Source: Escherichia coli (GTDB lineage Bacteria > Pseudomonadota > Gammaproteobacteria > Enterobacterales > Enterobacteriaceae). From it: a stretch of 64,000 bases of DNA. The notes under the pieces are model-generated. The model ran no database searches. It was given only the letters and a program-made list of their open reading frames with translations, and was not told the origin of the DNA. Shown one piece after another: positions 1,622 through 50,505 of the stretch (its first letter is position 1; each line of letters opens with the position of its first letter). Position numbers and translations under genes: made by a program. The stretch is taken from the NCBI RefSeq assembly GCF_003334405.1, contig NZ_QOWM01000004.1, one strand, 5' to 3'.

Positions 1622-3462
<1,841 letters not shown>

Positions 3463-4370: not shown

Positions 4371-7300
4371 TTAACCTATAGTCATTAAGCTGGCGTTACC
4401 GCCAGCGGCAGCGGTATTCACACTCAGCGAACGCTCGATATACAGCCGTTCCAGAAGGATATTGCTTTCGCCACGGGCAAAACCCTGCACCGAAACAATT
4501 GTGCCATCCCGCGCGGCAACTGCTTCACACAATGCGCGAAGCTGATCCGAATCACCGTGGAAGATCACCGCATCAAACGGTTGAGCGGTTATATTTTCCG
4601 CTTTCGCCAGTTGAATACGTTCGCTGACTGCCGATGGCAATGCCTTCACTAACTGACGATGCAGCGCGTCATCCGGCCACAGTACCTGGCTGCCCACCGC
4701 CAGCACGGCGGCGAGCTGAGTCAGCGCATCCTGCTCATCATCGGCAATACACAACACGCGCTCACGCGGCAGCAGCGTCCAGGTGTTGCGTTCACCCGTC
4801 GGCCCCGGCAGCAATCGTTGTGTTCCTGCCTGCGCCAGCTCGCCATATTGCGTACATAACGCCTGCAATTCTGGACGATTTGCTGCCCATTCCCGCAGTG
4901 CATTTAGCGGCTGAGTCAATGCGGCTTTCAACTGCGCATCGACCGGATACTTTGCATCCTGACGCGCGAGCGTCACTGCCAGCGCACTTTCCGGGCGATT
5001 CGCCAGCAGACGGTAGAGATAGAGCGGACCGCCTGCTTTCGGCCCGGTACCGGACAACCCTTCGCCGCCGAACGGCTGCACACCAACCACTGCGCCCACC
5101 ATATTACGGTTAACATACAGGTTACCAACATGGGCCGAGCCAGTGACCTGGGCGATGGTTTCATCAATGCGCGTATGGACGCCAAGCGTCAGACCATAAC
5201 CGGAAGCGTTAATCTGCTCGATCAGCTCTGGTAGCTGGTTACGGTTGTAACGCACCACATGCAGCACCGGACCAAAGACCTCTTTTTGCAATTCGGCAAA
5301 GTCATCCAGTTCGATCAGCGTCGGGGCGACAAAGGTGCCGCTTTGCCATTCACGGGCATCTTCGCTGTTTTCCCGCACCGCCTGGAACACCGGACGGCCT
5401 TTGCTACGCATGGTCTGAATATGGCGCTCAATATTGGCTTTCGCTTCGCTATCAATCACTGGACCGATATCGGTGGTCAGGCGACCCGGATTACCTATCC
5501 GGCATTCGGCCATTGCGCCGCGCAGCATTTTCAACGTGTGGTCGGCAATCTCATCTTGCAGGCACAGCACGCGCAGCGCCGAACAACGCTGACCCGCACT
5601 GTCGAACGCCGAGGCCAGTACATCCACGACGACCTGTTCGGTCAGTGCTGAAGAATCGACAATCATCGCGTTCATGCCGCCGGTTTCAGCGATGAGCGGA
5701 ATAGGGCGACCCTGAGCGTCCAGGCGGCTGGCGATATTGCGCTGCAGTAACGTAGCGACTTCGGTTGAACCGGTAAACATCACCCCGCGCACGCGATCAT
5801 CACCCGTCAGTTGCGCGCCCACGGTTTCACCCCGACCTGGCAGCAATTGCACCACGCCTGGCGGTACACCCGCTTCCAGCAAAATGGCGATCCCTTGCGC
5901 GGCAATCAGCGGCGTTTGTTCTGCCGGTTTTGCCAGCACGCTGTTACCTGCCGCCAGTGCGGCGGCGATCTGCCCGGTGAAAATAGCCAGCGGGAAGTTC
6001 CACGGACTGATACACACCACAGGCCCTAATGGACGGTGGGTTTCGTTAGCGAAATCATCCCGCACCTGTCCGGCGTAGTAGTGGAGAAAATCGACCGCTT
6101 CGCGCACTTCGGCAATGGCGTTACTGAAGGTTTTTCCGGCCTCACGCACCAGAATACCAATCAGTTGCTGCATCTGGCTTTCCATCAGCACGGCAGCGCG
6201 GTGCAAAATCGCTGCGCGTTCAGCCGGAGGCGTGGCAAACCAGATTGGCGCGTTATTAACCGCACTTTCCAGCGCCTGTTCTACTTCACGCGGCGTGGCT
6301 TCACGCACATAGCCCACAATATCTTTCGGTTCCGCAGGGTTAATAACGGGCGACATCTCACCTGCCGCTACCGGTTGTTCCAGCATTGGCAAGGCCTGCC
6401 ATTTTTGCAGTGCACTATTGAGCAGGGCAGAGGAGAGCGAGGCCAGGCGGTGTTCGTTAGCGAGATCCAGCCCTGCCGAGTTGTCGCGCCCGTGACCGTA
6501 AAGATCGCGCGGCAGGGGAATTTTCGGATGCGGTAATCCAGTTTGCCCTTCCTGTTGCGCCAGTTTTTCTACAGCAGTGACCGGATCGGCGACCAGTTCA
6601 TCCAGTGGCAAAGAGGTGTCGGCAATACGGTTAACAAACGAGGTGTTAGCACCGTTTTCCAGCAGGCGACGCACCAGATACGCCAACAGCGTTTCATGTG
6701 TGCCAACCGGAGCATAAATACGACACGGACGGTTAAGTTTGCCGTCGGCAACTTTCCCGGTGACCTGCTCATACAGTGGCTCGCCCATACCATGCAGGCA
6801 CTGGAACTCGTACTGACCCGGGTAGTAGTTCTGCCCCGCCAGTTGATAAATCGCCGCCAGCGTATGGGCGTTGTGCGTCGCGAACTGCGGGTAGATTAGA
6901 TTCGGCACCGCCAGCAGCTTTTTCGCACAGGCGAGATAAGAAACGTCGGTATACACCTTGCGGGTATAAACCGGATAACCTTCAAGGCCGTCCATCTGCG
7001 CACGCTTAATTTCACTATCCCAGTACGCGCCTTTCACCAGGCGAATCATCAGACGGCGACGGCTGCGGGTGGCGAGATCAATCAGGTAATCGATCACCAA
7101 CGGGCAGCGTTTTTGATAAGCCTGAATAACAAAACCGATGCCGTTCCAGCCTGCCAGTTCCGGCTCGAAACAGAGTTTTTCCAGCAGATCGAGGGAGATC
7201 TCCAGGCGATCGGACTCTTCGGCGTCAATGTTGATACCAATATCGTACTGACGCGCCAGCAGGGTGAGTGATTTCAGACGCGGGTAAAGCTCTTCCATTA

Positions 7301-8333
7301 CCCGGTCATACTGGGCGCGGCTATAACGCGGATGCAGCGCCGACAGTTTGATTGAAATGCCCGGCCCTTCATAGATGCCACGACCGTTAGACGCTTTACC
7401 GATGGCGTGAATCGCCTGCTGATAGGAAACCATATACGCCTGTGCATCTGCGGCGGTCAGCGCGGCTTCGCCCAGCATATCGTAAGAGTAACGGAAACCT
7501 TTCTCTTCCAGCTTGCGGGCATTGGCTAACGCTTCCGCGATGGTTTCGCCAGTGACGAACTGCTCACCCATCAGGCGCATCGCCATATCCACACCTTTGC
7601 GGATCAGCGGTTCACCGCTTTTACCGATAATGCGGTTCAGCGAGCGGGAGAGGCTGGCTTCGTTATGGGTGGAAACCAGTTTGCCAGTAAACAGCAGCCC
7701 CCAGGTGGCGGCATTAACAAACAGTGACGGGCTACGACCAATGTGTGACTGCCAGTTACCGTTGCTGATTTTGTCGCGAATTAACGCGTCGCGGGTGGCT
7801 TTGTCGGGAATACGCAACAACGCTTCCGCCAGACACATCAGCGCCACGCCTTCCTGCGATGACAGCGAAAACTCCTGCAATAACCCCTGGACCATACCTG
7901 CGCGACCACTGGCATTTTTTTGATTACGCAGTTTATCGGCCAGCTGATACGCCAGTTTGTGCGCCTGTTCAGCAACTGGCTGCGGCAGGCGGGCTTGTTC
8001 CAGCAGCATAGAAACCGCTTCGGTTTCCGGGCGGCGATAGGCCGCGGTGATCGCGGCGCGGGAAACCGACTGGGGCAATATTTGCTCGGCAAAGTCGAGG
8101 AATGGCTGGTGTGGTTCCTCTGCCGGAGTCGGTGCTTCATCGCTCTCATTGGCCGCGCCAGAAAGCAGCGCAGGTAGCTCCGGCAGAGTATCGCTGTTTT
8201 CCAGTTGTTCGAGATAAGAAAAAATCGCCTGCTTAATTAACCAGTGTGGTGTGCGATCGATACGTGTCGCGGCAGACTTAATACGCTCACGCGTCGCGTC
8301 GTCCAGCTTAACCCCCATGGTGGTGGTTCCCAT
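4371..8333 (-). CDS. putA: PutA, bifunctional proline dehydrogenase / P5C dehydrogenase and transcriptional repressor
   Basis: ORF track 4371..8399; start trimmed to MGTTTMGVKLDDATRERIKSAA (1320 aa, RHH N-terminus). Confidence 0.96.
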   Translation of the reverse strand: MGTTTMGVKLDDATRERIKSAATRIDRTPHWLIKQAIFSYLEQLENSDTLPELPALLSGAANESDEAPTPAEEPHQPFLDFAEQILPQSVSRAAITAAYRRPETEAVSMLLEQARLPQPVAEQAHKLAYQLADKLRNQKNASGRAGMVQGLLQEFSLSSQEGVALMCLAEALLRIPDKATRDALIRDKISNGNWQSHIGRSPSLFVNAATWGLLFTGKLVSTHNEASLSRSLNRIIGKSGEPLIRKGVDMAMRLMGEQFVTGETIAEALANARKLEEKGFRYSYDMLGEAALTAADAQAYMVSYQQAIHAIGKASNGRGIYEGPGISIKLSALHPRYSRAQYDRVMEELYPRLKSLTLLARQYDIGINIDAEESDRLEISLDLLEKLCFEPELAGWNGIGFVIQAYQKRCPLVIDYLIDLATRSRRRLMIRLVKGAYWDSEIKRAQMDGLEGYPVYTRKVYTDVSYLACAKKLLAVPNLIYPQFATHNAHTLAAIYQLAGQNYYPGQYEFQCLHGMGEPLYEQVTGKVADGKLNRPCRIYAPVGTHETLLAYLVRRLLENGANTSFVNRIADTSLPLDELVADPVTAVEKLAQQEGQTGLPHPKIPLPRDLYGHGRDNSAGLDLANEHRLASLSSALLNSALQKWQALPMLEQPVAAGEMSPVINPAEPKDIVGYVREATPREVEQALESAVNNAPIWFATPPAERAAILHRAAVLMESQMQQLIGILVREAGKTFSNAIAEVREAVDFLHYYAGQVRDDFANETHRPLGPVVCISPWNFPLAIFTGQIAAALAAGNSVLAKPAEQTPLIAAQGIAILLEAGVPPGVVQLLPGRGETVGAQLTGDDRVRGVMFTGSTEVATLLQRNIASRLDAQGRPIPLIAETGGMNAMIVDSSALTEQVVVDVLASAFDSAGQRCSALRVLCLQDEIADHTLKMLRGAMAECRIGNPGRLTTDIGPVIDSEAKANIERHIQTMRSKGRPVFQAVRENSEDAREWQSGTFVAPTLIELDDFAELQKEVFGPVLHVVRYNRNQLPELIEQINASGYGLTLGVHTRIDETIAQVTGSAHVGNLYVNRNMVGAVVGVQPFGGEGLSGTGPKAGGPLYLYRLLANRPESALAVTLARQDAKYPVDAQLKAALTQPLNALREWAANRPELQALCTQYGELAQAGTQRLLPGPTGERNTWTLLPRERVLCIADDEQDALTQLAAVLAVGSQVLWPDDALHRQLVKALPSAVSERIQLAKAENITAQPFDAVIFHGDSDQLRALCEAVAARDGTIVSVQGFARGESNILLERLYIERSLSVNTAAAGGNASLMTIG

Positions 8334-8367
8334 GCCATTACTCCTGTTGTTCAGAAAGGTGCAACTT

Positions 8368-8568
8368 AACGTTATCGTGAAATATCCATGATGTTGCAAC
8401 TTTGTGCAACCATGTTAAATGTGACATGCGTAGCAAGCTTAAAAATGAATGAAATGTTAATAAAAGAAATCGATATGACAGGGATTAAAAAAATAACTCA
8501 GACTTTTTCTCTGCGGCAGTTAACATTTTTGAAAGGTGCAACCGCAAAAAATGTGAGAGAGTGCAACC
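8368..8568. promoter_or_regulatory. put control region with clustered PutA operator motifs (GTTGCA / GTGCAAC) between divergent putA and putP
   Basis: At least five copies of GTTGCA-type motif (ggtgcaac, gttgcaac, gtgcaacc, ggtgcaacc, gtgcaacc) in the ~420-bp divergent intergenic region. Confidence 0.7.
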
Positions 8569-8755
8569 TGATGAAAAATAGTGTCGCTGAGCACTAAAAT
8601 TTAATGTAAATGGTGTGTTAAATCGATTGTGAATAACCAGCGCTTCCGGCAGGATACGGTCGCCCTGGTAAAACATAAACTCTGTTACCCCGTTCCGGTG
8701 GCAGATATAACGGCAAGTTTCGACATTGCCGATAATAATTTTTTGGAGACTTTAG

Positions 8756-10264
<1,509 letters not shown>

Positions 10265-10301
10265 GGGACTTAGCCTGCGGCGGTTTTGTTTGGCTTCAGC
10301 A

Positions 10302-10390
10302 GCGGGTTGCGCTCCCTTAATGTGCCTCGCCATATAAATTGAATGGTGCAGGGAGCGCGCAGGGGGCGGCCAATCGCCGCCGCCCCCTGC
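10302..10390 (+). terminator. GC-rich stem-loops downstream of putP (probable terminator / structured element)
   Basis: Inverted repeat agggggcggc-caatc-gccgccccct plus gcgctccc...gggagcgc about 40-125 nt after putP stop; no clean T-tract so terminator role uncertain. Confidence 0.4.
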
Positions 10391-10564
10391 TGTCCCGGCC
10401 TTCGGGGAACGCTTCAGCGATTTTGACGCCACCAACACCCGAGCTGTTATTATGTTCCGGGCAAAAAGTTAGATTTGATAATCGCGGATGGACGAAATTG
10501 CTTGATACACCCGCTTATCAGTTTTACATGGAAGCTCTGATGCATTGAGTCTGGACAGTTTTGT

Positions 10565-10598
10565 CGGCTGGATACGGCGTTTACGCGGCATCCGGCAA
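10565..10598. repeat. REP (repetitive extragenic palindrome) element
   Basis: ggctggatacggcgtttacgcggcatccggcaag matches the GCCGGATGCGGCGT-type REP consensus. Confidence 0.7.
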
Positions 10599-10729
10599 GA
10601 ACACATGGTTCTTTGCAAACAATCCCATCTTTCTACCCTGGAATAATCGTTTATATCCCTTGGCATTACCTCTCTTTGTTTACATTCCAACATCATTTTA
10701 TAAACATTCCGCTTGTGTTTTTCTTTGCC

Positions 10730-10749
10730 GTAATGATAATCGCTATCAC
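10730..10749. promoter_or_regulatory. Fur box upstream of efeU
   Basis: gtaatgataatcgctatcac resembles the GATAATGATAATCATTATC Fur consensus, ~60 nt upstream of efeU ATG. Confidence 0.65.
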
Positions 10750-10806
10750 TGCGATTTACTTTTCTTTGCATAGATTGACTCAGAAAAACGTTTAAGGGTG
10801 GGTGGC

Positions 10807-11637
10807 ATGTTTGTTCCGTTTCTCATTATGTTGCGCGAAGGACTTGAAGCCGCGCTGATTGTCAGTTTGATTGCCAGCTATCTTAAGCGTACCCAGCGAG
10901 GCCGATGGATTGGTGTGATGTGGATTGGCGTGTTGCTTGCCGCTGCGTTGTGCCTGGGCTTGGGTATCTTCATTAACGAAACCACCGGCGAATTTCCGCA
11001 AAAAGAACAGGAACTGTTTGAAGGTATCGTGGCGGTGATCGCCGTGGTGATCCTTACCTGGATGGTTTTCTGGATGCGCAAAGTGTCGCGCAACGTCAAA
11101 GTGCAACTGGAACAGGCAGTCGATAGCGCATTGCAGCGTGGAAATCATCATGGCTGGGCGCTGGTGATGATGGTCTTTTTTGCCGTTGCAAGGGAAGGGC
11201 TGGAGTCGGTCTTTTTCCTGCTGGCGGCATTTCAACAAGATGTCGGGATCTGGCCGCCGCTGGGTGCAATGCTCGGTCTTGCTACTGCCGTGGTGCTAGG
11301 CTTCCTGCTCTACTGGGGCGGTATTCGCCTCAATCTTGGTGCATTTTTTAAATGGACCAGCCTGTTTATTCTCTTCGTCGCCGCAGGGCTGGCAGCTGGT
11401 GCCATTCGCGCATTTCATGAAGCCGGATTGTGGAACCACTTTCAGGAAATCGCCTTCGATATGAGTGCGGTGCTCTCAACTCACTCGCTGTTTGGCACGC
11501 TGATGGAAGGGATTTTTGGCTATCAGGAAGCGCCGAGCGTCAGCGAAGTCGCCGTCTGGTTTATTTATCTCATCCCGGCGCTGGTGGCATTTGCTCTGCC
11601 ACCACGCGCAGGGGCGACAGCGTCTCGCTCCGCGTAA
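10807..11637 (+). CDS. efeU: EfeU, FTR1-family ferrous iron permease (intact reading frame, two REGLE motifs)
   Basis: ORF track 10798..11637 (GTG-extended); ATG at 10807 gives MFVPFLIMLREGLEAALIV...; second REGLES motif present; uninterrupted 276 aa. Confidence 0.93.
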   Translation: MFVPFLIMLREGLEAALIVSLIASYLKRTQRGRWIGVMWIGVLLAAALCLGLGIFINETTGEFPQKEQELFEGIVAVIAVVILTWMVFWMRKVSRNVKVQLEQAVDSALQRGNHHGWALVMMVFFAVAREGLESVFFLLAAFQQDVGIWPPLGAMLGLATAVVLGFLLYWGGIRLNLGAFFKWTSLFILFVAAGLAAGAIRAFHEAGLWNHFQEIAFDMSAVLSTHSLFGTLMEGIFGYQEAPSVSEVAVWFIYLIPALVAFALPPRAGATASRSA

Positions 11638-11694
11638 CAAATACGACGCAAACTCTTGCTTAGTTACAACATACTTTAAAGGGATAGTCTCGTC

Positions 11695-12822
11695 ATGACC
11701 ATTAACTTCCGCCGTAACGCATTGCAGTTGAGCGTGGCTGCGCTGTTTTCTTCTGCTTTTATGGCTAACGCCGCTGATGTGCCGCAGGTCAAAGTGACCG
11801 TGACGGATAAGCAGTGCGAACCGATGACCATTACGGTTAACGCCGGGAAAACACAGTTCATTATTCAGAACCACAGCCAGAAGGCGCTGGAGTGGGAGAT
11901 CCTCAAAGGCGTGATGGTGGTGGAAGAGCGGGAAAATATCGCCCCTGGCTTTAGCCAGAAAATGACGGCGAATTTACAGCCTGGCGAATACGATATGACC
12001 TGCGGTCTGCTGACTAACCCGAAAGGGAAGTTGATCGTCAAAGGTGAGGCAACGGCGGATGCGGCGCAAAGTGATGCGCTGTTAAGTCTTGGTGGTGCAA
12101 TTACTGCATATAAAGCGTATGTCATGGCGGAAACCACGCAGCTGGTGACCGACACCAAAGCCTTTACCGACGCGATTAAAGCAGGCGATATCGAAAAAGC
12201 GAAAGCACTGTATGCACCGACGCGCCAGCACTATGAGCGTATTGAACCGATTGCTGAACTGTTCTCCGATCTGGATGGCAGCATTGACGCCCGTGAAGAT
12301 GATTACGAGCAAAAAGCCGCCGACCCAAAATTCACTGGTTTCCACCGTCTGGAAAAAGCATTGTTTGGCGACAACACCACCAAAGGGATGGATCAGTACG
12401 CTGAGCAGCTTTATACCGATGTGGTCGATTTGCAAAAACGCATCAGTGAACTGGCTTTCCCACCTTCAAAAGTGGTCGGCGGCGCAGCCGGACTGATTGA
12501 GGAAGTGGCAGCCAGCAAAATTAGCGGTGAAGAAGATCGCTACAGCCACACCGATCTGTGGGATTTCCAGGCTAACGTTGAAGGCTCGCAGAAAATTGTC
12601 GATTTGCTGCGTCCACAACTGCAAAAAGCCAACCCGGAACTGCTGGCAAAAGTCGATGCCAACTTTAAAAAGGTCGATACCATTCTGGCGAAATACCGTA
12701 CTAAAGACGGTTTTGAAACCTACGACAAATTGACCGATGCCGACCGGAATGCACTGAAAGGACCGATTACTGCGCTGGCGGAAGATCTGGCGCAACTTCG
12801 CGGTGTGCTGGGACTGGATTAA
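11695..12822 (+). CDS. efeO: EfeO, periplasmic iron-binding component (cupredoxin + M75 peptidase-like domains)
   Basis: ORF track 375 aa [26 protein letters not shown] with signal peptide. Confidence 0.95.
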
Positions 12823-12827
12823 GCGTT

Positions 12828-14099
12828 ATGCAGTATAAAGATGAAAACGGCGTGAATGAACCGTCACGCCGACGTTTACTGAAAGTGATAGGTGCACTGG
12901 CGCTGGCGGGAAGTTGTCCGGTCGCTCATGCACAAAAAACGCAAAGTGCGCCGGGTACGCTTTCACCGGATGCTCGCAATGAGAAACAGCCGTTTTATGG
13001 TGAGCATCAGGCAGGGATCCTGACGCCACAACAGGCCGCAATGATGCTGGTGGCGTTTGATGTGCTTGCCAGCGATAAAGCCGATCTTGAGCGGTTGTTT
13101 CGCTTGTTGACTCAGCGTTTTGCTTTTCTGACTCAGGGCGGAGCAGCACCAGAAACGCCAAATCCGCGCCTGCCACCACTCGATTCCGGCATTCTTGGCG
13201 GCTACATTGCGCCCGATAATCTCACCATCACGTTATCGGTGGGTCACTCATTGTTTGATGAGCGCTTTGGCCTTGCGCCACAGATGCCAAAAAAGCTGCA
13301 GAAGATGACGCGTTTCCCCAACGACTCGCTGGATGCGGCGTTATGTCATGGTGATGTGTTGCTACAGATTTGCGCCAACACCCAGGACACGGTTATCCAT
13401 GCGCTGCGCGATATCATCAAACACACGCCGGATTTGCTCAGTGTGCGCTGGAAGCGGGAAGGGTTTATTTCCGATCACGCGGCGCGTAGTAAAGGCAAAG
13501 AGACGCCGATTAATTTGCTGGGTTTCAAAGACGGCACTGCCAATCCCGATAGCCAGAATGATAAGTTGATGCAAAAAGTGGTGTGGGTAACGGCAGATCA
13601 GCAGGAGCCTGCGTGGACAATCGGTGGCAGCTATCAGGCAGTACGCTTGATTCAGTTTCGAGTGGAATTTTGGGACAGAACGCCGCTGAAAGAACAGCAG
13701 ACGATTTTTGGCCGTGATAAGCAAACCGGTGCGCCGCTGGGAATGCAGCATGAGCATGATGTGCCTGATTACGCCAGCGACCCGGAAGGGAAGGTGATCG
13801 CGCTGGACAGCCATATCCGGCTGGCGAATCCCCGCACGGCGGAGAGTGAGTCCAGCCTGATGCTGCGTCGTGGCTACAGTTATTCACTGGGCGTCACCAA
13901 CTCCGGGCAACTGGATATGGGGTTGCTGTTTGTCTGCTACCAACACGATCTGGAAAAAGGCTTCCTGACAGTACAAAAAAGGCTCAATGGCGAAGCGCTG
14001 GAGGAATACGTTAAACCTATCGGCGGCGGTTATTTTTTTGCGCTGCCGGGGGTGAAGGACGCGAACGATTATTTCGGAAGCGCGTTATTGCGGGTTTAA
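12828..14099 (+). CDS. efeB: EfeB, Tat-exported dye-decolorizing (DyP) haem peroxidase / deferrochelatase
   Basis: ORF track 423 aa; twin-arginine motif SRRRLLK in N-terminus. Confidence 0.95.
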
Positions 14100-14104
14100 T
14101 GTTT

Positions 14105-14248
14105 TTAGGCGGATAAGGCATTTGTGCGCAGATGCCTGATGCGACGCTTGCGCGTCTTATCATGCCTACAATCAGTGCGGGTTTGGTAGGCTGGATAAGG
14201 CGTTCACGCCGCATCCGGCGATCGTGCACTGATGCCTGATGCAAATCC
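14105..14248. repeat. BIME / cluster of REP elements
   Basis: Three or more REP-like units (aggcggataaggc..., gcctgatgcgacgcttgcgcgtcttatcatgcctaca, ggctggataaggcgttcacgccgcatccggcg). Confidence 0.75.
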
Positions 14249-14267
14249 TGCTGAAAGCACACAGCTT

Positions 14268-14298
14268 TTTTCATCACTGTCATCACTCTGTCATCTTT
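14268..14298 (+). promoter_or_regulatory. Pho box (PhoB binding site) upstream of phoH
   Basis: Direct heptamer repeats tcatcaCTGTCATcactCTGTCATc matching the CTGTCAT-N4-CTGTCAT Pho box. Confidence 0.7.
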
Positions 14299-14443
14299 CC
14301 AGTAGAAACTAATGTCACTGAAATGGTGTTTTATAGTTAAATATAAGTAAATATATTGTTGCAATAAATGCGAGATCTGTTGTACTTATTAAGTAGCAGC
14401 GGAAGTTCCCGGCAGTGATAGTCAGTCACTATGGAGATCGCGG

Positions 14444-15508
14444 ATGGTAACGTCCTGTACTGGACATGTTTTAGATAATCAACGCGCCACCACTCGCGGA
14501 GTTTTCTCCTCCGGTAGTCATCTCGTCACTTTGCATTTTCAACCTCATCCTTTCTTTTCATGTGTTACCGACGCCGTAAACGGTGCGCGTAGCCGTTTTT
14601 CGGCATTTTATCCAAAAGCAAACTATGGCTTACAAGGAAGCCAACCCTCTGATGTTCGTGCGCATAATCGCGCTGCCAACGGCGCGTGTGATGAATACAA
14701 ACAACTCAAGGTGCTCTCCATGGGAAGACAAAAAGCAGTGATCAAAGCTCGTCGCGAGGCAAAACGTGTGCTGAGACGGGATTCGCGCAGCCATAAGCAG
14801 CGTGAAGAAGAATCGGTCACCTCGCTTGTGCAGATGGGCGGCGTAGAAGCCATTGGTATGGCCCGCGACAGTCGCGATACTTCGCCCATCCTCGCGCGAA
14901 ATGAAGCGCAATTGCACTATCTGAAGGCTATTGAGAGTAAGCAGCTGATATTCGCCACGGGCGAAGCCGGGTGCGGAAAAACCTGGATCAGCGCAGCAAA
15001 AGCGGCAGAGGCCCTGATACATAAGGATGTCGACAGGATTATCGTCACCCGTCCAGTTCTGCAAGCCGATGAAGATCTTGGCTTCTTACCTGGAGATATC
15101 GCAGAAAAGTTTGCTCCCTATTTTCGCCCGGTCTACGACGTGCTGGTCCGGCGCTTAGGGGCTTCCTTTATGCAGTACTGCCTGCGACCGGAAATAGGGA
15201 AGGTGGAAATTGCGCCGTTCGCCTATATGCGTGGACGTACCTTTGAAAATGCAGTCGTCATTCTTGACGAGGCGCAGAATGTGACTGCCGCGCAAATGAA
15301 AATGTTTTTAACCCGCCTCGGGGAGAACGTGACGGTTATCGTCAACGGTGATATCACGCAATGCGATTTGCCTCGCGGCGTGTGCTCCGGATTAAGTGAC
15401 GCGCTGGAACGTTTCGAAGAAGATGAAATGGTTGGGATCGTCCGGTTCGGTAAAGAGGACTGCGTACGTTCGGCACTTTGCCAACGTACGCTGCATGCCT
15501 ACAGTTAA
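14444..15508 (+). CDS. phoH: PhoH, phosphate-starvation-inducible ATPase (PhoH-like)
   Basis: ORF track 354 aa with Walker A GEAGCGKT. Confidence 0.93.
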   Translation: MVTSCTGHVLDNQRATTRGVFSSGSHLVTLHFQPHPFFSCVTDAVNGARSRFSAFYPKANYGLQGSQPSDVRAHNRAANGACDEYKQLKVLSMGRQKAVIKARREAKRVLRRDSRSHKQREEESVTSLVQMGGVEAIGMARDSRDTSPILARNEAQLHYLKAIESKQLIFATGEAGCGKTWISAAKAAEALIHKDVDRIIVTRPVLQADEDLGFLPGDIAEKFAPYFRPVYDVLVRRLGASFMQYCLRPEIGKVEIAPFAYMRGRTFENAVVILDEAQNVTAAQMKMFLTRLGENVTVIVNGDITQCDLPRGVCSGLSDALERFEEDEMVGIVRFGKEDCVRSALCQRTLHAYS

Positions 15509-15557
15509 GTGTGTTATCGGTGCAGAGCCCGGGCGAACCGGGCTTTGTTTTGGGTGT

Positions 15558-15971
15558 TTATGCCCGGACTAGCGCTTTTTCTGAAACAACCATTTTTATT
15601 TGCCCCTGGCTGGTGAAGTGTACGCTCATCCTGTGGCTTTTTTGTAGTTGCTGATAGAGCTCATCAGGTATTGCTAAGCTCTCTGCATATTCTTGCGGCG
15701 TATATTGGTAGGCTGCATGATGCTGCTGTTTTTGAAAACGCAGCTTATTGTACAGCGCCCAGACAATTAACACGACGGCATTCGCCACTGCCAGCAAAAA
15801 ATAGAACTGAAGTCGGCTTCTGGCCTCGCTTTGCCAGTAATAACCCGTCAGCAGATCCATGGCGAATAAGAATATGAACAACGCAAATAATGTCCACAAG
15901 ATGGTTGTGGCAACATAATCAACCAGTAAACGTACTGGTGATTGTCGGGTCGTAATAATTAAATTGTTCAT
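15558..15971 (-). CDS. pgaD: PgaD, PGA (poly-beta-1,6-GlcNAc) synthesis accessory membrane protein
   Basis: ORF track 137 aa [26 protein letters not shown]; last gene of pgaABCD. Confidence 0.93.
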
Positions 15972-15972
15972 A

Positions 15973-17298
15973 TTAACCTCTCAGAATCCCGCGATCGGGA
16001 CTTACCCAACGGGCGCGTTGCTTTTTAGGCATCAACATGACTCGTGTAAATGATACCAATGTCGTTGCCAGGCTCAGCATCCAGAAAATAACCGGGAACC
16101 AAATAATCCAGAAAAGCGATGAAGTCAGATTATGCTCATAGCGATTCTCGATCATCAGGCTGACAATAAATTGCAGTAAACATAACGTACACAATAATAT
16201 TCCGGCAGTATGTGTCGCAGCGATATGTGTCAATTCAATATTTAACGGTACACCGGCAAGTTGGACTGCGTAAATAATGAAACCGACCAGGCAGGTGAAG
16301 GCCCATATTGTCGTCAGGCAGTATTCAAAAAACAGCGGCCACATTCGAAAGTTTTCTTTGCGCCACAACCTTGTCATATTTTTGAGGAATACTTCTGCAC
16401 CGCCCTGAGCCCAGCGCAGGCGCTGTTTCCACAGCCCTTTTAACGTTTCAGGCATTAATATCCAGCACAGTGCCCGTGGCTCGTAAAAAATCGTCCACTG
16501 ATTCAACTGCAGCTTCCAGCTAATATCAATATCTTCGGTGATCATATCGTCACTCCAGTAACCCACTTCTGCCAGGGCGCTGCGACGAAATGCGGCAATA
16601 ACACCGGAAACGGTAAATACGTTTCCATAGATACGCTGGGTTCGCTTGATCAAACCAATAATTGAGGAATACTCGCCAACCTGAATTTTACCCACCAGGG
16701 TAGAACGTGTTCGAATACGAGGATTACCGGTTACGGCACCCACACGCGGGTTGTACAACATCGGTTCCACAATATATGCCGCCGCATCGCGGTCTAATAA
16801 CGCATCGCCATCAATGCACACCAGATATTCACTTTTCGCCGCGGCAGCTCCGGTTTTAAGCGCAATGGCTTTCCCCTGGTTTTGCGCCAGATGAATGACC
16901 CGCAAATGGGGAATTTGTGCAGCCATGCGATCCAGGATGGCACGGGTTTTATCTGTTGAACCGTCATTTACGGCAATAACTTCAATGTTCTCATAACGCT
17001 GTGCTAAAGCGGCGTGTATGGTTTCCTCAACGTTTTTCTCCTCATTAAAACAGGGAATGATAATGGAGATAGACGGATTATCTTTCAACTGGGGAGCTGG
17101 TGCGTTTTCTCCCCACGGCCAGTGGCGTTCACGATAGACCCAGAAATAGACGCCGCCAACAATCCACATAATGGACATAAAAAACGGCCAGAAGAAAACG
17201 AACCTCATCATCAGTTCACCAGAGTGAAAGTACGCTACGCATAGGGGTATGCATAACACCAGACATAATATAAAAAACGATACGATGCGATTAATCAT
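15973..17298 (-). CDS. pgaC: PgaC, GT2-family poly-beta-1,6-N-acetylglucosamine synthase
   Basis: ORF track 441 aa; glycosyltransferase family 2 motifs ([13 protein letters not shown]-like). Confidence 0.95.
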
Positions 17299-19309
17299 TT
17301 TTCGGATACCAGGCTGTTGAAAACTCAGGACGAATAAGGTCTATTTCAGGTTGGTTATGCAGAAAATTGTCGGGATAATAACCATAGTTTTTCACTCCAT
17401 TCAGTTGTAATAGGCTCATCCAGTGAGCGAGTTGTTGCGAAGAAATAGCCTGATGCTGACCATTTTTCTGCCAGTTTTGTGCCTGTAATTCTAAAATAGA
17501 TTTGTCTTTAGCCTGAGGGATGTTTTTAATTTGATTGGTCAATTGTATTAACCATTGGTCAGCCGATTTTTCTGCGACACCTTCCAGATAAGGCATAGCC
17601 ATAATAGCGGTCCAGTCATAGCTTTTTAGGAAATCAGCATAATTCTGTGCAAACCAGGCTTCACTTTCAGGTTGTATTACCGGAAGTGCAAAAATATTTC
17701 GTGCAGTTTTAATATGTGGACCGCGAATGGCTTTTACGCGCGCACTAAGTTCTAAAGTGAAGTCAGTTAACGCACGACTTTTAAAGCGGGCCCACTGTTT
17801 AAATTGCTCCGGGTTTTGTCGAATTTCGCTCAGACTCCCGCTAAAGCCTGCTTGCTGATAAGCCGTGATAGCCGGTGCACTGGCATCTTCATAATCTGAA
17901 AGCAAAGCATCATCGTGGAACAATATGCCATCAAAAGCAGCATGTCCGGCAAGATCTTCATATAACATGCCAACTTGTGCTCTGACTCTGTCATCGAAAG
18001 GAGAGAGACGGTGATATTGTTCAGGATGAATTTGTGCTTTTTTCTCCCCTGTTGGTAAGTATTTTACTCGCGTTAATGTGGGATCTAAATCCCAGCTTAA
18101 TACCGGCATCCACGCATAGATGTTTACACCTGAGCGGGTACGTAATTGCCAGGCAACCCGACTAAAAATATCTGCTTTCATTGGTAGCAAACGATTTGGA
18201 AACCAGACCTCTTTGACCAGCCCATCACCATCGGGATCAGCAAATGCCTGCAAATACACGGTTGATATTTGCATATCTTTCACCCGCTGAATTAGCACAT
18301 CAATATTGCGATCCATTTGCTGGAGGTTTTCGTCATAAACGTAATCAAGATCGATATGCATTATCCGTTGTGGTGATTTTTCCTGTACGGTAATAATTTG
18401 CTGGGCAAACTCTTTTAATGAGGGATTATTGGCGATTAATACCCGCGGAATGGAATCCAATTGCGACGCATTTGCCAAACCTGATTCAAGGGTGAAGAAC
18501 ATGTCATAACCGATTTTTTTTAATTCCTCTATCGCTATGCCATTCGCTTCGCCATAAGGCCAAACAAAAACGTGTGGATTTACCTCAACCTTTGTACGCA
18601 GGTATTCCGTCATTTTTACAGCATCCAGACGAATTCTTTCCCGGTATTCTGCTGCGGTTTCATACCGTGCGTGGTCAGTAAAATATGCACGATTTACATA
18701 TACAGGCAATAAGCTGCCGGTGGCATTAGCCTGAATACCGTAGTGAGAATTCCATGTATGAGAAGCGAGCTCAACGAGCCGGGAACGCGCAACTTCTCGC
18801 ACTTGTTGCCACGTGGCAAAATATTCTCGATCGACCAACTCATCGCCAAATTTTACTTGTTTATCCGCTGGCGTATCGACCCAACTGCCGACGGGGGCCC
18901 ATACAGCAGGCCACTGGAAGGCCTGAAGAATTGGGAAGACGCGGGTATAAAAACTCTGGTAGCCGTCATCAAAAGTCAGCACTACAGCTTTTTCCGGTAG
19001 CGGTTTTCCTCCTCGATGTGCTTCACGAATTTGAGCAATACTGACCGGTTGATAACCGTTCTCGCGCAGCCAGGCAAATTGTTCACGCAGTGCTGATGTC
19101 CGCACTGACATAAAACGCTGGTCGGCAGCTTCGTCTTCAACGTTATGCCATGAAATCGCTACAAAACCATTATGCGGCCACGGTTGCTCGGCGAGTAAAG
19201 ATTCGCGATCCTGTGGCGGTATAAATGATGTTCTTGACTGGCTAATGCACGCGGTGAGCATAATTATACTCACCAGCATCAGGAGATATTTATTTCCATT
19301 ACGTAACAT
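17291..19309 (-). CDS. pgaB: PgaB, PGA N-deacetylase / export lipoprotein
   Basis: ORF track 672 aa with lipoprotein signal (LTAC); overlaps pgaC start by 8 nt. Confidence 0.95.
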
Positions 19310-23686: not shown

Positions 23687-23726
23687 AGCGGCATTTTGAT
23701 CCTACCCACGTAATATGGACACAGGC

Positions 23727-24593
23727 CTAAGCGAGGTTCTTGTTTTCAAATTGTTCCGGACTGAGGCCGCCACACCAACTGTGCCGCCGCCACCGATTGT
23801 AATCACATTCGATATAATTAAACACCGTTGCCCGCATTATTTCCCGGCTGATAAAGTGTTCTCCATGGATACATTCCACTTTCAGCGAATGAAAGAAGCT
23901 TTCCACGCAGGCATTATCGTAGCAGCAACCTTTTGCGCTCATACTTCCACGCAGATTATGCCGCTTCAGTTGCGCCTGATAATCTGCTGAACAGTACTGG
24001 CCTCCACGGTCCGTGTGAACGATAACGTTCCGGGGCCTCTTACGCCGCCACAGCGCCATCTGCAGGGCATCGCAGGCCAGTTGCGCCGTCATGCGTGGCG
24101 ACATTGACCAGCCAATAACGGCACGTGACCACAGGTCAATGACCACTGCCAGATACAGCCAGCCTTCATCTGTACGTAAGTACGTGATGTCTCCTGCCCA
24201 CTTCTGGTTCGGGCCACTGGCGTAAAAATCCTGCTCCAACAGATTTTCTGACACAGGCAGGCCGTGTGCGCGGTAGCTGACCGGGCTGAACTTCCGGGAG
24301 GCCTTTGCCCTCAGTCCCTGACGGCGCAGGCTTGCCGCCACGGTTTTTACGTTAAAGGGGTAACCCTGAGCACGCAGTTCATCCGTCAGGCGTGGGGCAC
24401 CGTAACGCTGTTTTGACCGGGTAAAAGCCGCGAGGACAACGCTGTCGCAGTGTTGGCGGAACTGCTGACGCGTGCTTATCCTTGTCCGCCGCTGACACCA
24501 CGTATACCAGCCGCTGCGGGCCACCCGGAGCACGCGGCACATTGCTTTGATGCTGAACTCAGCCTGATGTTTTTCAATAAAGACATACTTCAT
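23727..24593 (-). CDS. insF: IS3 OrfB (InsF) transposase, DDE catalytic domain
   Basis: ORF track 288 aa [32 protein letters not shown]; overlaps orfA (ATGA). Confidence 0.95.
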
Positions 24594-24889
24594 TTCAGGC
24601 GCTTCGCGAAGTATGTCGCGGCCTTTTGGAGGATAGCCAGCTCTTCATCCCGTTCTGCCAGCTGGCGTTTGAGACGTGCAATCTCGGTAGACATCTCCAG
24701 TTCACGTTCAGAAGACGTCTGCTGATTTTGCTGTTTACTGCGCCAGTTGTAGAGTTGTGATTCATACAGGCTGAGTTCACGGGCTGCGGCAGTAACACCG
24801 ATGCGTTCAGCAAGCTTCAGGGCTTCACTGCGAAATTCAGGCGAATGCTGTTTACGGGGTTTTTTACTGGTTGATACTGTTTTTGTCAT
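24590..24889 (-). CDS. insE: IS3 OrfA (InsE), HTH DNA-binding transposase subunit
   Basis: ORF track 24590..24898 (GTG-extended); ATG gives [31 protein letters not shown] (99 aa). Confidence 0.93.
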
Positions 24890-24954
24890 GTGAGTCACCT
24901 CTGACTGAGAGTTTACTCACTTAGCCGCGTGTCCACTATTGCTGGGTAAGATCA

Positions 24955-26281: not shown

Positions 26282-26413
26282 GGAAGTGATAGGAAGTGAC
26301 CAGATAATACATATATGTTCTGTACTCTCTTGCGCATTTTGATTGTTGACTGAGTAACCAGACAGTTGATGTGCACGATTTCCCCTCGCCCTAACAGACG
26401 TGGGCGGGGGCAC

Positions 26414-26835
26414 CCGGTGTGTGCAATATACGAAAAAAAAGCCCGTACTTTCGTACGAGCTCTTCTTTAAATATGGCGGTGAGGGGGGGATTGACTCGCT
26501 TCGCTCGCCCTGCGGGCAGCCCGCTCACTGCGTTCACGGTCTGTCCAACTGGCTGTCGCCAGTTGTCGAACCCCGGTCGGGGCTTCTCATCCCCCCGGTG
26601 TGTGCAATATACGAAAAAAAAGCCCGTACTTTCGTACGAGCTCTTCTTTAAATATGGCGGTGAGGGGGGGATTGACTCGCTTCGCTCGCCCTGCGGGCAG
26701 CCCGCTCACTGCGTTCACGGTCTGTCCAACTGGCTGTCGCCAGTTGTCGAACCCCGGTCGGGGCTTCTCATCCCCCCGGTGTGTGCAATATACGAAAAAA
26801 AAGCCCGTACTTTCGTACGAGCTCTTCTTTAAATA
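26414..26835. repeat. Tandem direct repeat, 181-bp unit x ~2.3, each unit carrying a copy of the serX 3' end and its terminator
   Basis: Identical ORF-track fragments begin at 26419, 26600 and 26781 (period 181); sequence ccggtgtgtgcaatatacgaaaaaaaagcccgtactttcgtacgagctcttctttaaatatggcggtgaggggggatt... repeats exactly. Confidence 0.92.
26781..26835 (-). terminator. serX rho-independent terminator (copies recur in each repeat unit)
   Basis: Reverse strand immediately after tRNA CCA: GAGCTCGTACGAAAGTACGGGC hairpin followed by TTTTTTTT. Confidence 0.75.
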
Positions 26836-26923
26836 TGGCGGTGAGGGGGGGATTCGAACCCCCGATACGTTGCCGTATACACACTTTCCAGGCGTGCTCC
26901 TTCAGCCACTCGGACACCTCACC
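26836..26923 (-). tRNA. serX: tRNA-Ser (GGA anticodon), 88 nt with long variable arm and encoded CCA
   Basis: Reverse strand reads GGTGAGGTGTCCGAGTGGCTGAAGGAGCACGCCTGGAAAGTGTGTATACGGCAACGTATCGGGGGTTCGAATCCCCCCCTCACCGCCA. Confidence 0.95.
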
Positions 26924-50474: not shown

Positions 50475-50505
50475 AAAAGCCGGGGCGACCCGGCAAAAAA
50501 AAATC
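50475..50505 (-). terminator. Bidirectional-type terminator after dinI (hairpin flanked by A/T runs)
   Basis: aaaaaagccggggcgacccggcaaaaaaaaa immediately downstream of dinI stop. Confidence 0.7.

Follow-up and report, generated by a model that had tools for sequence, protein, structure and literature searches.

The 64,000-nucleotide stretch of DNA analysed here (the window) carries an uninterrupted efeU gene, followed by intact efeO and efeB, at the site where Escherichia coli K-12 carries an efeU pseudogene. Taken as a whole, these results are best explained, with a probability of roughly 95%, by a source strain that is a phylogroup-A-type close relative of K-12, itself not K-12, which would have retained the ancestral, working efeUOB operon; no feature of the sequence speaks against this reading. 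A sequence-only reading of the window had offered two alternatives, either a non-K-12 E. coli or a strain with a functional transporter where the reference lacks one; the comparisons below indicate that both are true together, the source being a non-K-12 E. coli which also has an intact efeUOB.

The efeU frame is continuous for 276 codons plus a stop, from an ATG at 10807 to 11637, as that reading had stated, and its start coincides with the efeU start annotated in both MG1655 and NCTC9041; the program-made open reading frame begins 9 nt earlier, at a GTG at position 10798. The encoded protein matches the Pfam FTR1 family (PF03239) over its full length (E = 2e-89, residues 1-275 of 276) and scores above the cut-offs of the NCBIfam EfeU equivalog model NF041756 (331 bits, cut-off 255) and of TIGR00145 (352 bits, cut-off 304). 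A crude Kyte-Doolittle scan of EfeU gives seven hydrophobic stretches (approximately aa 2-23, 32-60, 67-94, 123-139, 146-175, 175-204 and 244-268), and both REGLE motifs, which had been recognised from the letters alone, are present and fall in the first and fourth of these. EfeU is predicted to be a seven-helix FTR1-type inner-membrane permease in which the two RExxE motifs would bind iron. A sequence search with EfeU returned no solved relative in the copy of the PDB that was searched.

EfeU resembles Ftr1p, the high-affinity iron permease of Saccharomyces cerevisiae (also PF03239), in its full-length profile match, its two RExxE motifs and its approximately seven hydrophobic segments, but the partners of the two permeases differ. 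Ftr1p works with the multicopper oxidase Fet3p, whereas the bacterial permease pairs with EfeO, which has a cupredoxin-like N-terminal domain, and with the DyP-type peroxidase EfeB. The genes for both partners lie directly downstream of efeU, confirming the arrangement given in the sequence-only reading; the three genes are adjacent on the same strand, all intact, and are separated by gaps of 57 and 5 nt (Table 1). EfeU, EfeO and EfeB each score above the cut-off of an equivalog model. The translated N-terminus of EfeB contains the twin-arginine motif SRRRLLK, and the TIGR01412 model is named 'tat_substr_1'. Together with the periplasmic EfeO and the Tat-exported haem peroxidase EfeB, EfeU would import ferrous iron.

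Table 1. Coordinates of the efeUOB operon, its upstream elements and the IS3 insertion in the window.
Feature	Position	Strand	Evidence or remark
Fur-box-like palindromic 19-mer CGTAATGATAATCGCTATC	10729..10747	+	60-78 nt upstream of efeU ATG; candidate from sequence
CpxR-box-like GCAAAGAAAAGTAAA	10755..10769	-	One mismatch to GTAAA-N5-GTAAA; between candidate Fur box and start codon
efeU, intact FTR1-family iron permease gene	10807..11637	+	Open reading frame, profile matches, same coordinates as annotated efeU of NCTC9041
First REGLE (RExxE) motif, aa 10-14	10834..10848	+	In first hydrophobic segment
GG dinucleotide, single G in K-12; K-12 frameshift site, codon 36	10911..10912	+	Pairwise and three-way alignment
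Second REGLE (RExxE) motif, aa 129-133	11191..11205	+	In fourth hydrophobic segment
efeO, periplasmic component	11695..12822	+	NCBIfam EfeO NF041757, 480 bits, cut-off 270
efeB, Tat-exported DyP-type peroxidase/deferrochelatase	12828..14099	+	TIGR01412, 618 bits, cut-off 428
IS3 between dgcT and truncated ymdE	23697..24954	-	Collinear with MG1655 IS3D

In MG1655 (NC_000913.3), efeU is annotated as the pseudogene b4490 (formerly ycdN, b1016/b1017) at 1081356..1082185, with a length of 830 nt versus 831 nt in the window. Global alignment of the two genes gives exactly one difference, an extra G at window position 10912, which is gene position 106 and lies in codon 36; the window reads GGATTGGTGTG at this site and MG1655 reads GGATT-GTGTG. 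The MG1655 frame ends in ...RGRWIV* after 36 residues, and what follows of the gene lies in another frame. The statement in the sequence-only reading that K-12 efeU is frameshifted was therefore right, and the alignment it proposed against MG1655 yields a single one-base indel rather than an identical sequence. In open papers citing Grosse 2006 and Cao 2007, this frameshift is described as inactivating the transporter (PMC2808357, PMC7549933, PMC4361602, PMC4746246, PMC9600279).

The efeU locus of MG1655 is otherwise the same as that of the window in gene, position, flanks, promoter region, efeO and efeB, the two being one base apart across the operon. The efeO and efeB genes are base-for-base identical, with zero differences between window positions 10912 and 18514, and the G at 10912 is the sole difference from MG1655 in the whole interval from 5497 to 18513, so that efeUOB and its promoter region amount to the K-12 sequence with one base restored. 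In the 2007 work of Cao and colleagues, repair of this single-base deletion in K-12 reportedly gave a functional system.

As one-base length errors are common in short runs, a difference of GG versus G might be read as a sequencing or assembly error in a K-12 genome, which would make the intact frame an artefact. GG is, however, also present in O157:H7 strain TR01, in NCTC9041 and in the great majority of genomes, and the window departs from K-12 at other lineage markers, leaving no K-12 background in which the error could have occurred. An error at 10912 was rejected on these two grounds and is given virtually no chance.

The relative frequency of the two alleles was obtained from 5,426 complete E. 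coli genomes. When these were probed with 70 nt containing the MG1655 deletion, 368 gave an exact match, and all 60 of the matches listed are laboratory strains, nearly all recognisable K-12 derivatives (MG1655, C600, DH1, DH5alpha, J53, NCM3722). Searching with the 1,001-nt efeU region of the window gave matches in 5,418 genomes, and many wild and reference strains, including E. coli C, ETEC H10407 and UMNF18, have this region at 100% identity, with an intact EfeU permease annotated there. The rarity of the deletion allele and its confinement to the K-12 set, together with the wide occurrence of the intact region, indicate that the one-G deletion which K-12 has in codon 36 is derived and private to the K-12 lineage, and that the window holds the ancestral state. 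E. coli normally has an intact efeU and its presence here is ordinary, so the significance attached to it in the sequence-only reading was overstated. Both the normality of intact efeUOB and the K-12 frameshift are already known, documented since 2006-2007 (Grosse 2006; Cao 2007, as represented in the papers that cite them).

The window is collinear with MG1655 1070550..1134728 at ~99.97% identity, the match running through the IS3 element, and differs from it by 17 substitutions, two single-base indels and one 181-bp repeat unit. The wild strain NCTC9041 aligns over 64,000 of the 64,000 bases with no gaps and 13 mismatches, which are scattered substitutions with none in efeUOB; its efeU (EfeU WP_000497942.1), efeO and efeB are identical in DNA to those of the window, and it has the same IS3 and the same repeat copy number. 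No genome was found with fewer mismatches to the window than NCTC9041. When 25-kb pieces were searched, no complete genome was identical to the window, the best having ~3 mismatches in 1-25000 and ~6 in 39001-64000.

A three-way table of the window, MG1655 and NCTC9041 contains 8 sites private to MG1655, 3 private to NCTC9041 and 10 private to the window. At each of the 8 MG1655-private sites, namely efeU and seven further sites at positions 329 to 53366, the window agrees with NCTC9041. The K-12-private alleles sought across the 64 kb, namely the efeU deletion, an A8 run, six substitutions and an extra 181-bp repeat unit, are all absent from the window. The A run lies between bssS and dinI, where the window (50487-50495) and NCTC9041 have A9 and MG1655 has A8. 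Exact matches to the A8 allele occur in 372 genomes, which are essentially those with the efeU deletion, and the allele is a second K-12-lineage marker travelling with that deletion. A GC-rich hairpin 3' of dinI adjoins this run.

The wild state at all 8 MG1655-private sites and the confinement of the A8 allele to the K-12 set place the window outside the K-12 laboratory lineage, although very close to K-12. Its source would be a phylogroup-A-type E. coli that is a very close, collinear relative of K-12 without belonging to the laboratory lineage. The sequence-only reading had seen a tension between the intact efeU and a K-12-like remainder of the window, but there is none, as every MG1655-private difference is absent.

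Collinearity with MG1655 at 99.97% identity, IS3 included, and an efeUOB equal to the MG1655 sequence plus one G would also be expected of a K-12 derivative in which efeU had been restored, either through engineering of the kind in Cao et al. 2007 or through a spontaneous +1 reversion, or else of a K-12 strain that had received the region from a wild donor by transduction or conjugation. Such a strain does not account for the non-K-12 state at the seven further MG1655-private sites, for the lack of one 181-bp repeat unit of MG1655 or for A9 in place of a marker confined to essentially the K-12 set, and the shared IS3 is common to 42% of genomes. Simple repair or reversion would leave the seven other K-12-private differences, which extend over >53 kb, unexplained and is excluded. 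That leaves only a replacement of >53 kb by DNA of an unknown donor, an event for which there is no need, and a repaired or replaced K-12 is scarcely credible. The G at 10912 and the A run ending at 50495 provide quick markers for telling K-12 derivatives apart from the wild strains nearest to them.

The IS3 between dgcT and ymdE, which had been taken as a K-12-like feature of the window, is present at the same junction as in K-12, but the IS3/dgcT junction also occurs in 2,301 of the 5,426 complete genomes, among them a B-lineage strain and many wild isolates, and is therefore not diagnostic of K-12. It is an old, widely inherited insertion and is unfit for use as a K-12 marker. In O157:H7 TR01, roughly 30 kb of extra genes are present between dgcT and ycdU, where the window, K-12 and the other genomes with the junction have IS3 and a truncated ymdE; these genes include an EAL protein, fimbrial genes, an FHA/ShlB two-partner secretion pair, an acyl-carrier/fatty-acid-like cluster and a full-length ACP S-malonyltransferase. 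Given these extra genes in O157:H7, the IS3 marks an old deletion.

The function of the operon was assessed by comparison with O157:H7, using strain TR01. The proteins of the two strains are identical at 275 of 276 residues in EfeU, 372 of 375 in EfeO and 418 of 423 in EfeB, the single substitution in EfeU being A221 in the window versus E in O157:H7, with a few more in EfeO and EfeB. The O157:H7 efeU frame is intact with the same GG, so that this alignment, also proposed in the sequence-only reading, has no indel at the K-12 site. The Fur-box and ribosome-binding regions are identical to those of the window, and only two positions differ in the last 130 nt before the efeU ATG, which include the candidate Fur box. 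In papers citing Cao et al. 2007 (PMC2808357, PMC7549933), EfeUOB of O157:H7 is presented as a functional low-pH Fe2+ transporter. The near-identity of the window EfeU to that of O157:H7, together with this literature, suggests that it would likewise transport Fe2+, and the preference for low pH would be carried over from the same reports. As the operon is that of K-12 with the missing G and its proteins are 99% identical to those of O157:H7, efeUOB here is very probably a working, Fur-repressed ferrous-iron importer.

Beyond the efeU upstream region, O157:H7 differs from the window in its flanking DNA. Homology between the two upstream of efeU stops ~130 nt before the ATG (window about 10560-10680), and the O157:H7 putP-efeU interval has an extra 1.3-kb hypothetical ORF that is absent from the window and from K-12. 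TR01 also has an island inserted at serX.

Upstream of efeU, the Fur-box-like sequence reported in the sequence-only reading agrees with the consensus GATAATGATAATCATTATC at 15 of 19 positions, more closely than any other site on either strand of the 64-kb window; it is identical in MG1655 and O157:H7 in a three-way alignment. A terminator scan gave a hairpin with a T-rich tail at 10738-10756 (+), overlapping the candidate Fur box and just upstream of the efeU ribosome-binding region; the simplest explanation of this hairpin is the dyad symmetry of the Fur site. CpxR-box-like matches number 7 in the window versus 4.0 +/- 2.1 expected by chance, which is no excess over chance, so the one upstream of efeU weighs little alone, but its position fits the CpxR repression of efeU reported in PMC9600279, citing Cao 2007. 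Control of efeUOB would combine Fur repression with the CpxR repression reported at high pH, as far as the published regulation applies to this strain.

A crude scan for the sigma-70 consensus gave no promoter match upstream of efeU, and deletion of efeOB was without effect on virulence in one ExPEC strain (PMC7549933); both observations would suit an operon with an intact frame that is nonetheless inactive in this strain, perhaps through lack of expression or a defective partner outside the window. The same upstream DNA is nevertheless shared by strains in which the operon works. No motif is missing, the profiles match at full length, and the regulatory and partner sequences equal those of strains with a reported working system, making a non-working operon very unlikely. 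With a working importer, the preferred reading, aerobic uptake of ferrous iron at low pH would be expected of the source strain, an ability that K-12 lacks.

The nearest wild relatives, which share the IS3, the gene order and ~99.98% identity, with the window and K-12, are all efeU-intact, and among the matches listed the deletion was seen only in laboratory strains. This distribution prompts the tentative and rather doubtful suggestion that the efeU frameshift and the A8 indel by dinI arose very late, not in a natural population but in the immediate ancestry of the 1922 isolate or early in its storage in the laboratory. The source strain could be a near-isogenic, naturally efeU-positive comparator for K-12. 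Separately, and equally tentatively, the window-private substitutions might mark a mutagenised or error-prone source.

The ten window-private substitutions relative to MG1655 and NCTC9041 are at positions 3414, 18514, 32707, 34760, 43910, 47648, 49021, 49033, 53559 and 55792. They comprise seven transversions and three transitions, versus one transversion and 5 transitions among the MG1655-private substitutions. Six of the coding changes are non-synonymous (rutA R17W, numbered from the MG1655 start, pgaB L266I, ymdA V26L, yceI A34T, mdtH A347V and yceH A122P) and three are synonymous. The rutA change, at 3414, depends on the long MG1655 start; the RefSeq rutA of NCTC9041 starts 57 nt later, which puts this site upstream of the coding sequence. 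Shared natural polymorphism was considered as an origin for the window-private substitutions, but both solA changes together were found in no complete genome searched. The spectrum is unusual for natural variation, although with ten sites it is not statistically firm, and a mutagenised strain, errors of assembly or genuine private mutations could lie behind it.

The remaining length difference from MG1655 lies in a tandem repeat with a 181-bp period at window 26413-26854, between ycdU and serX, which is annotated as RtT sRNA-like in NCTC9041; MG1655 has one unit more than the window and NCTC9041.
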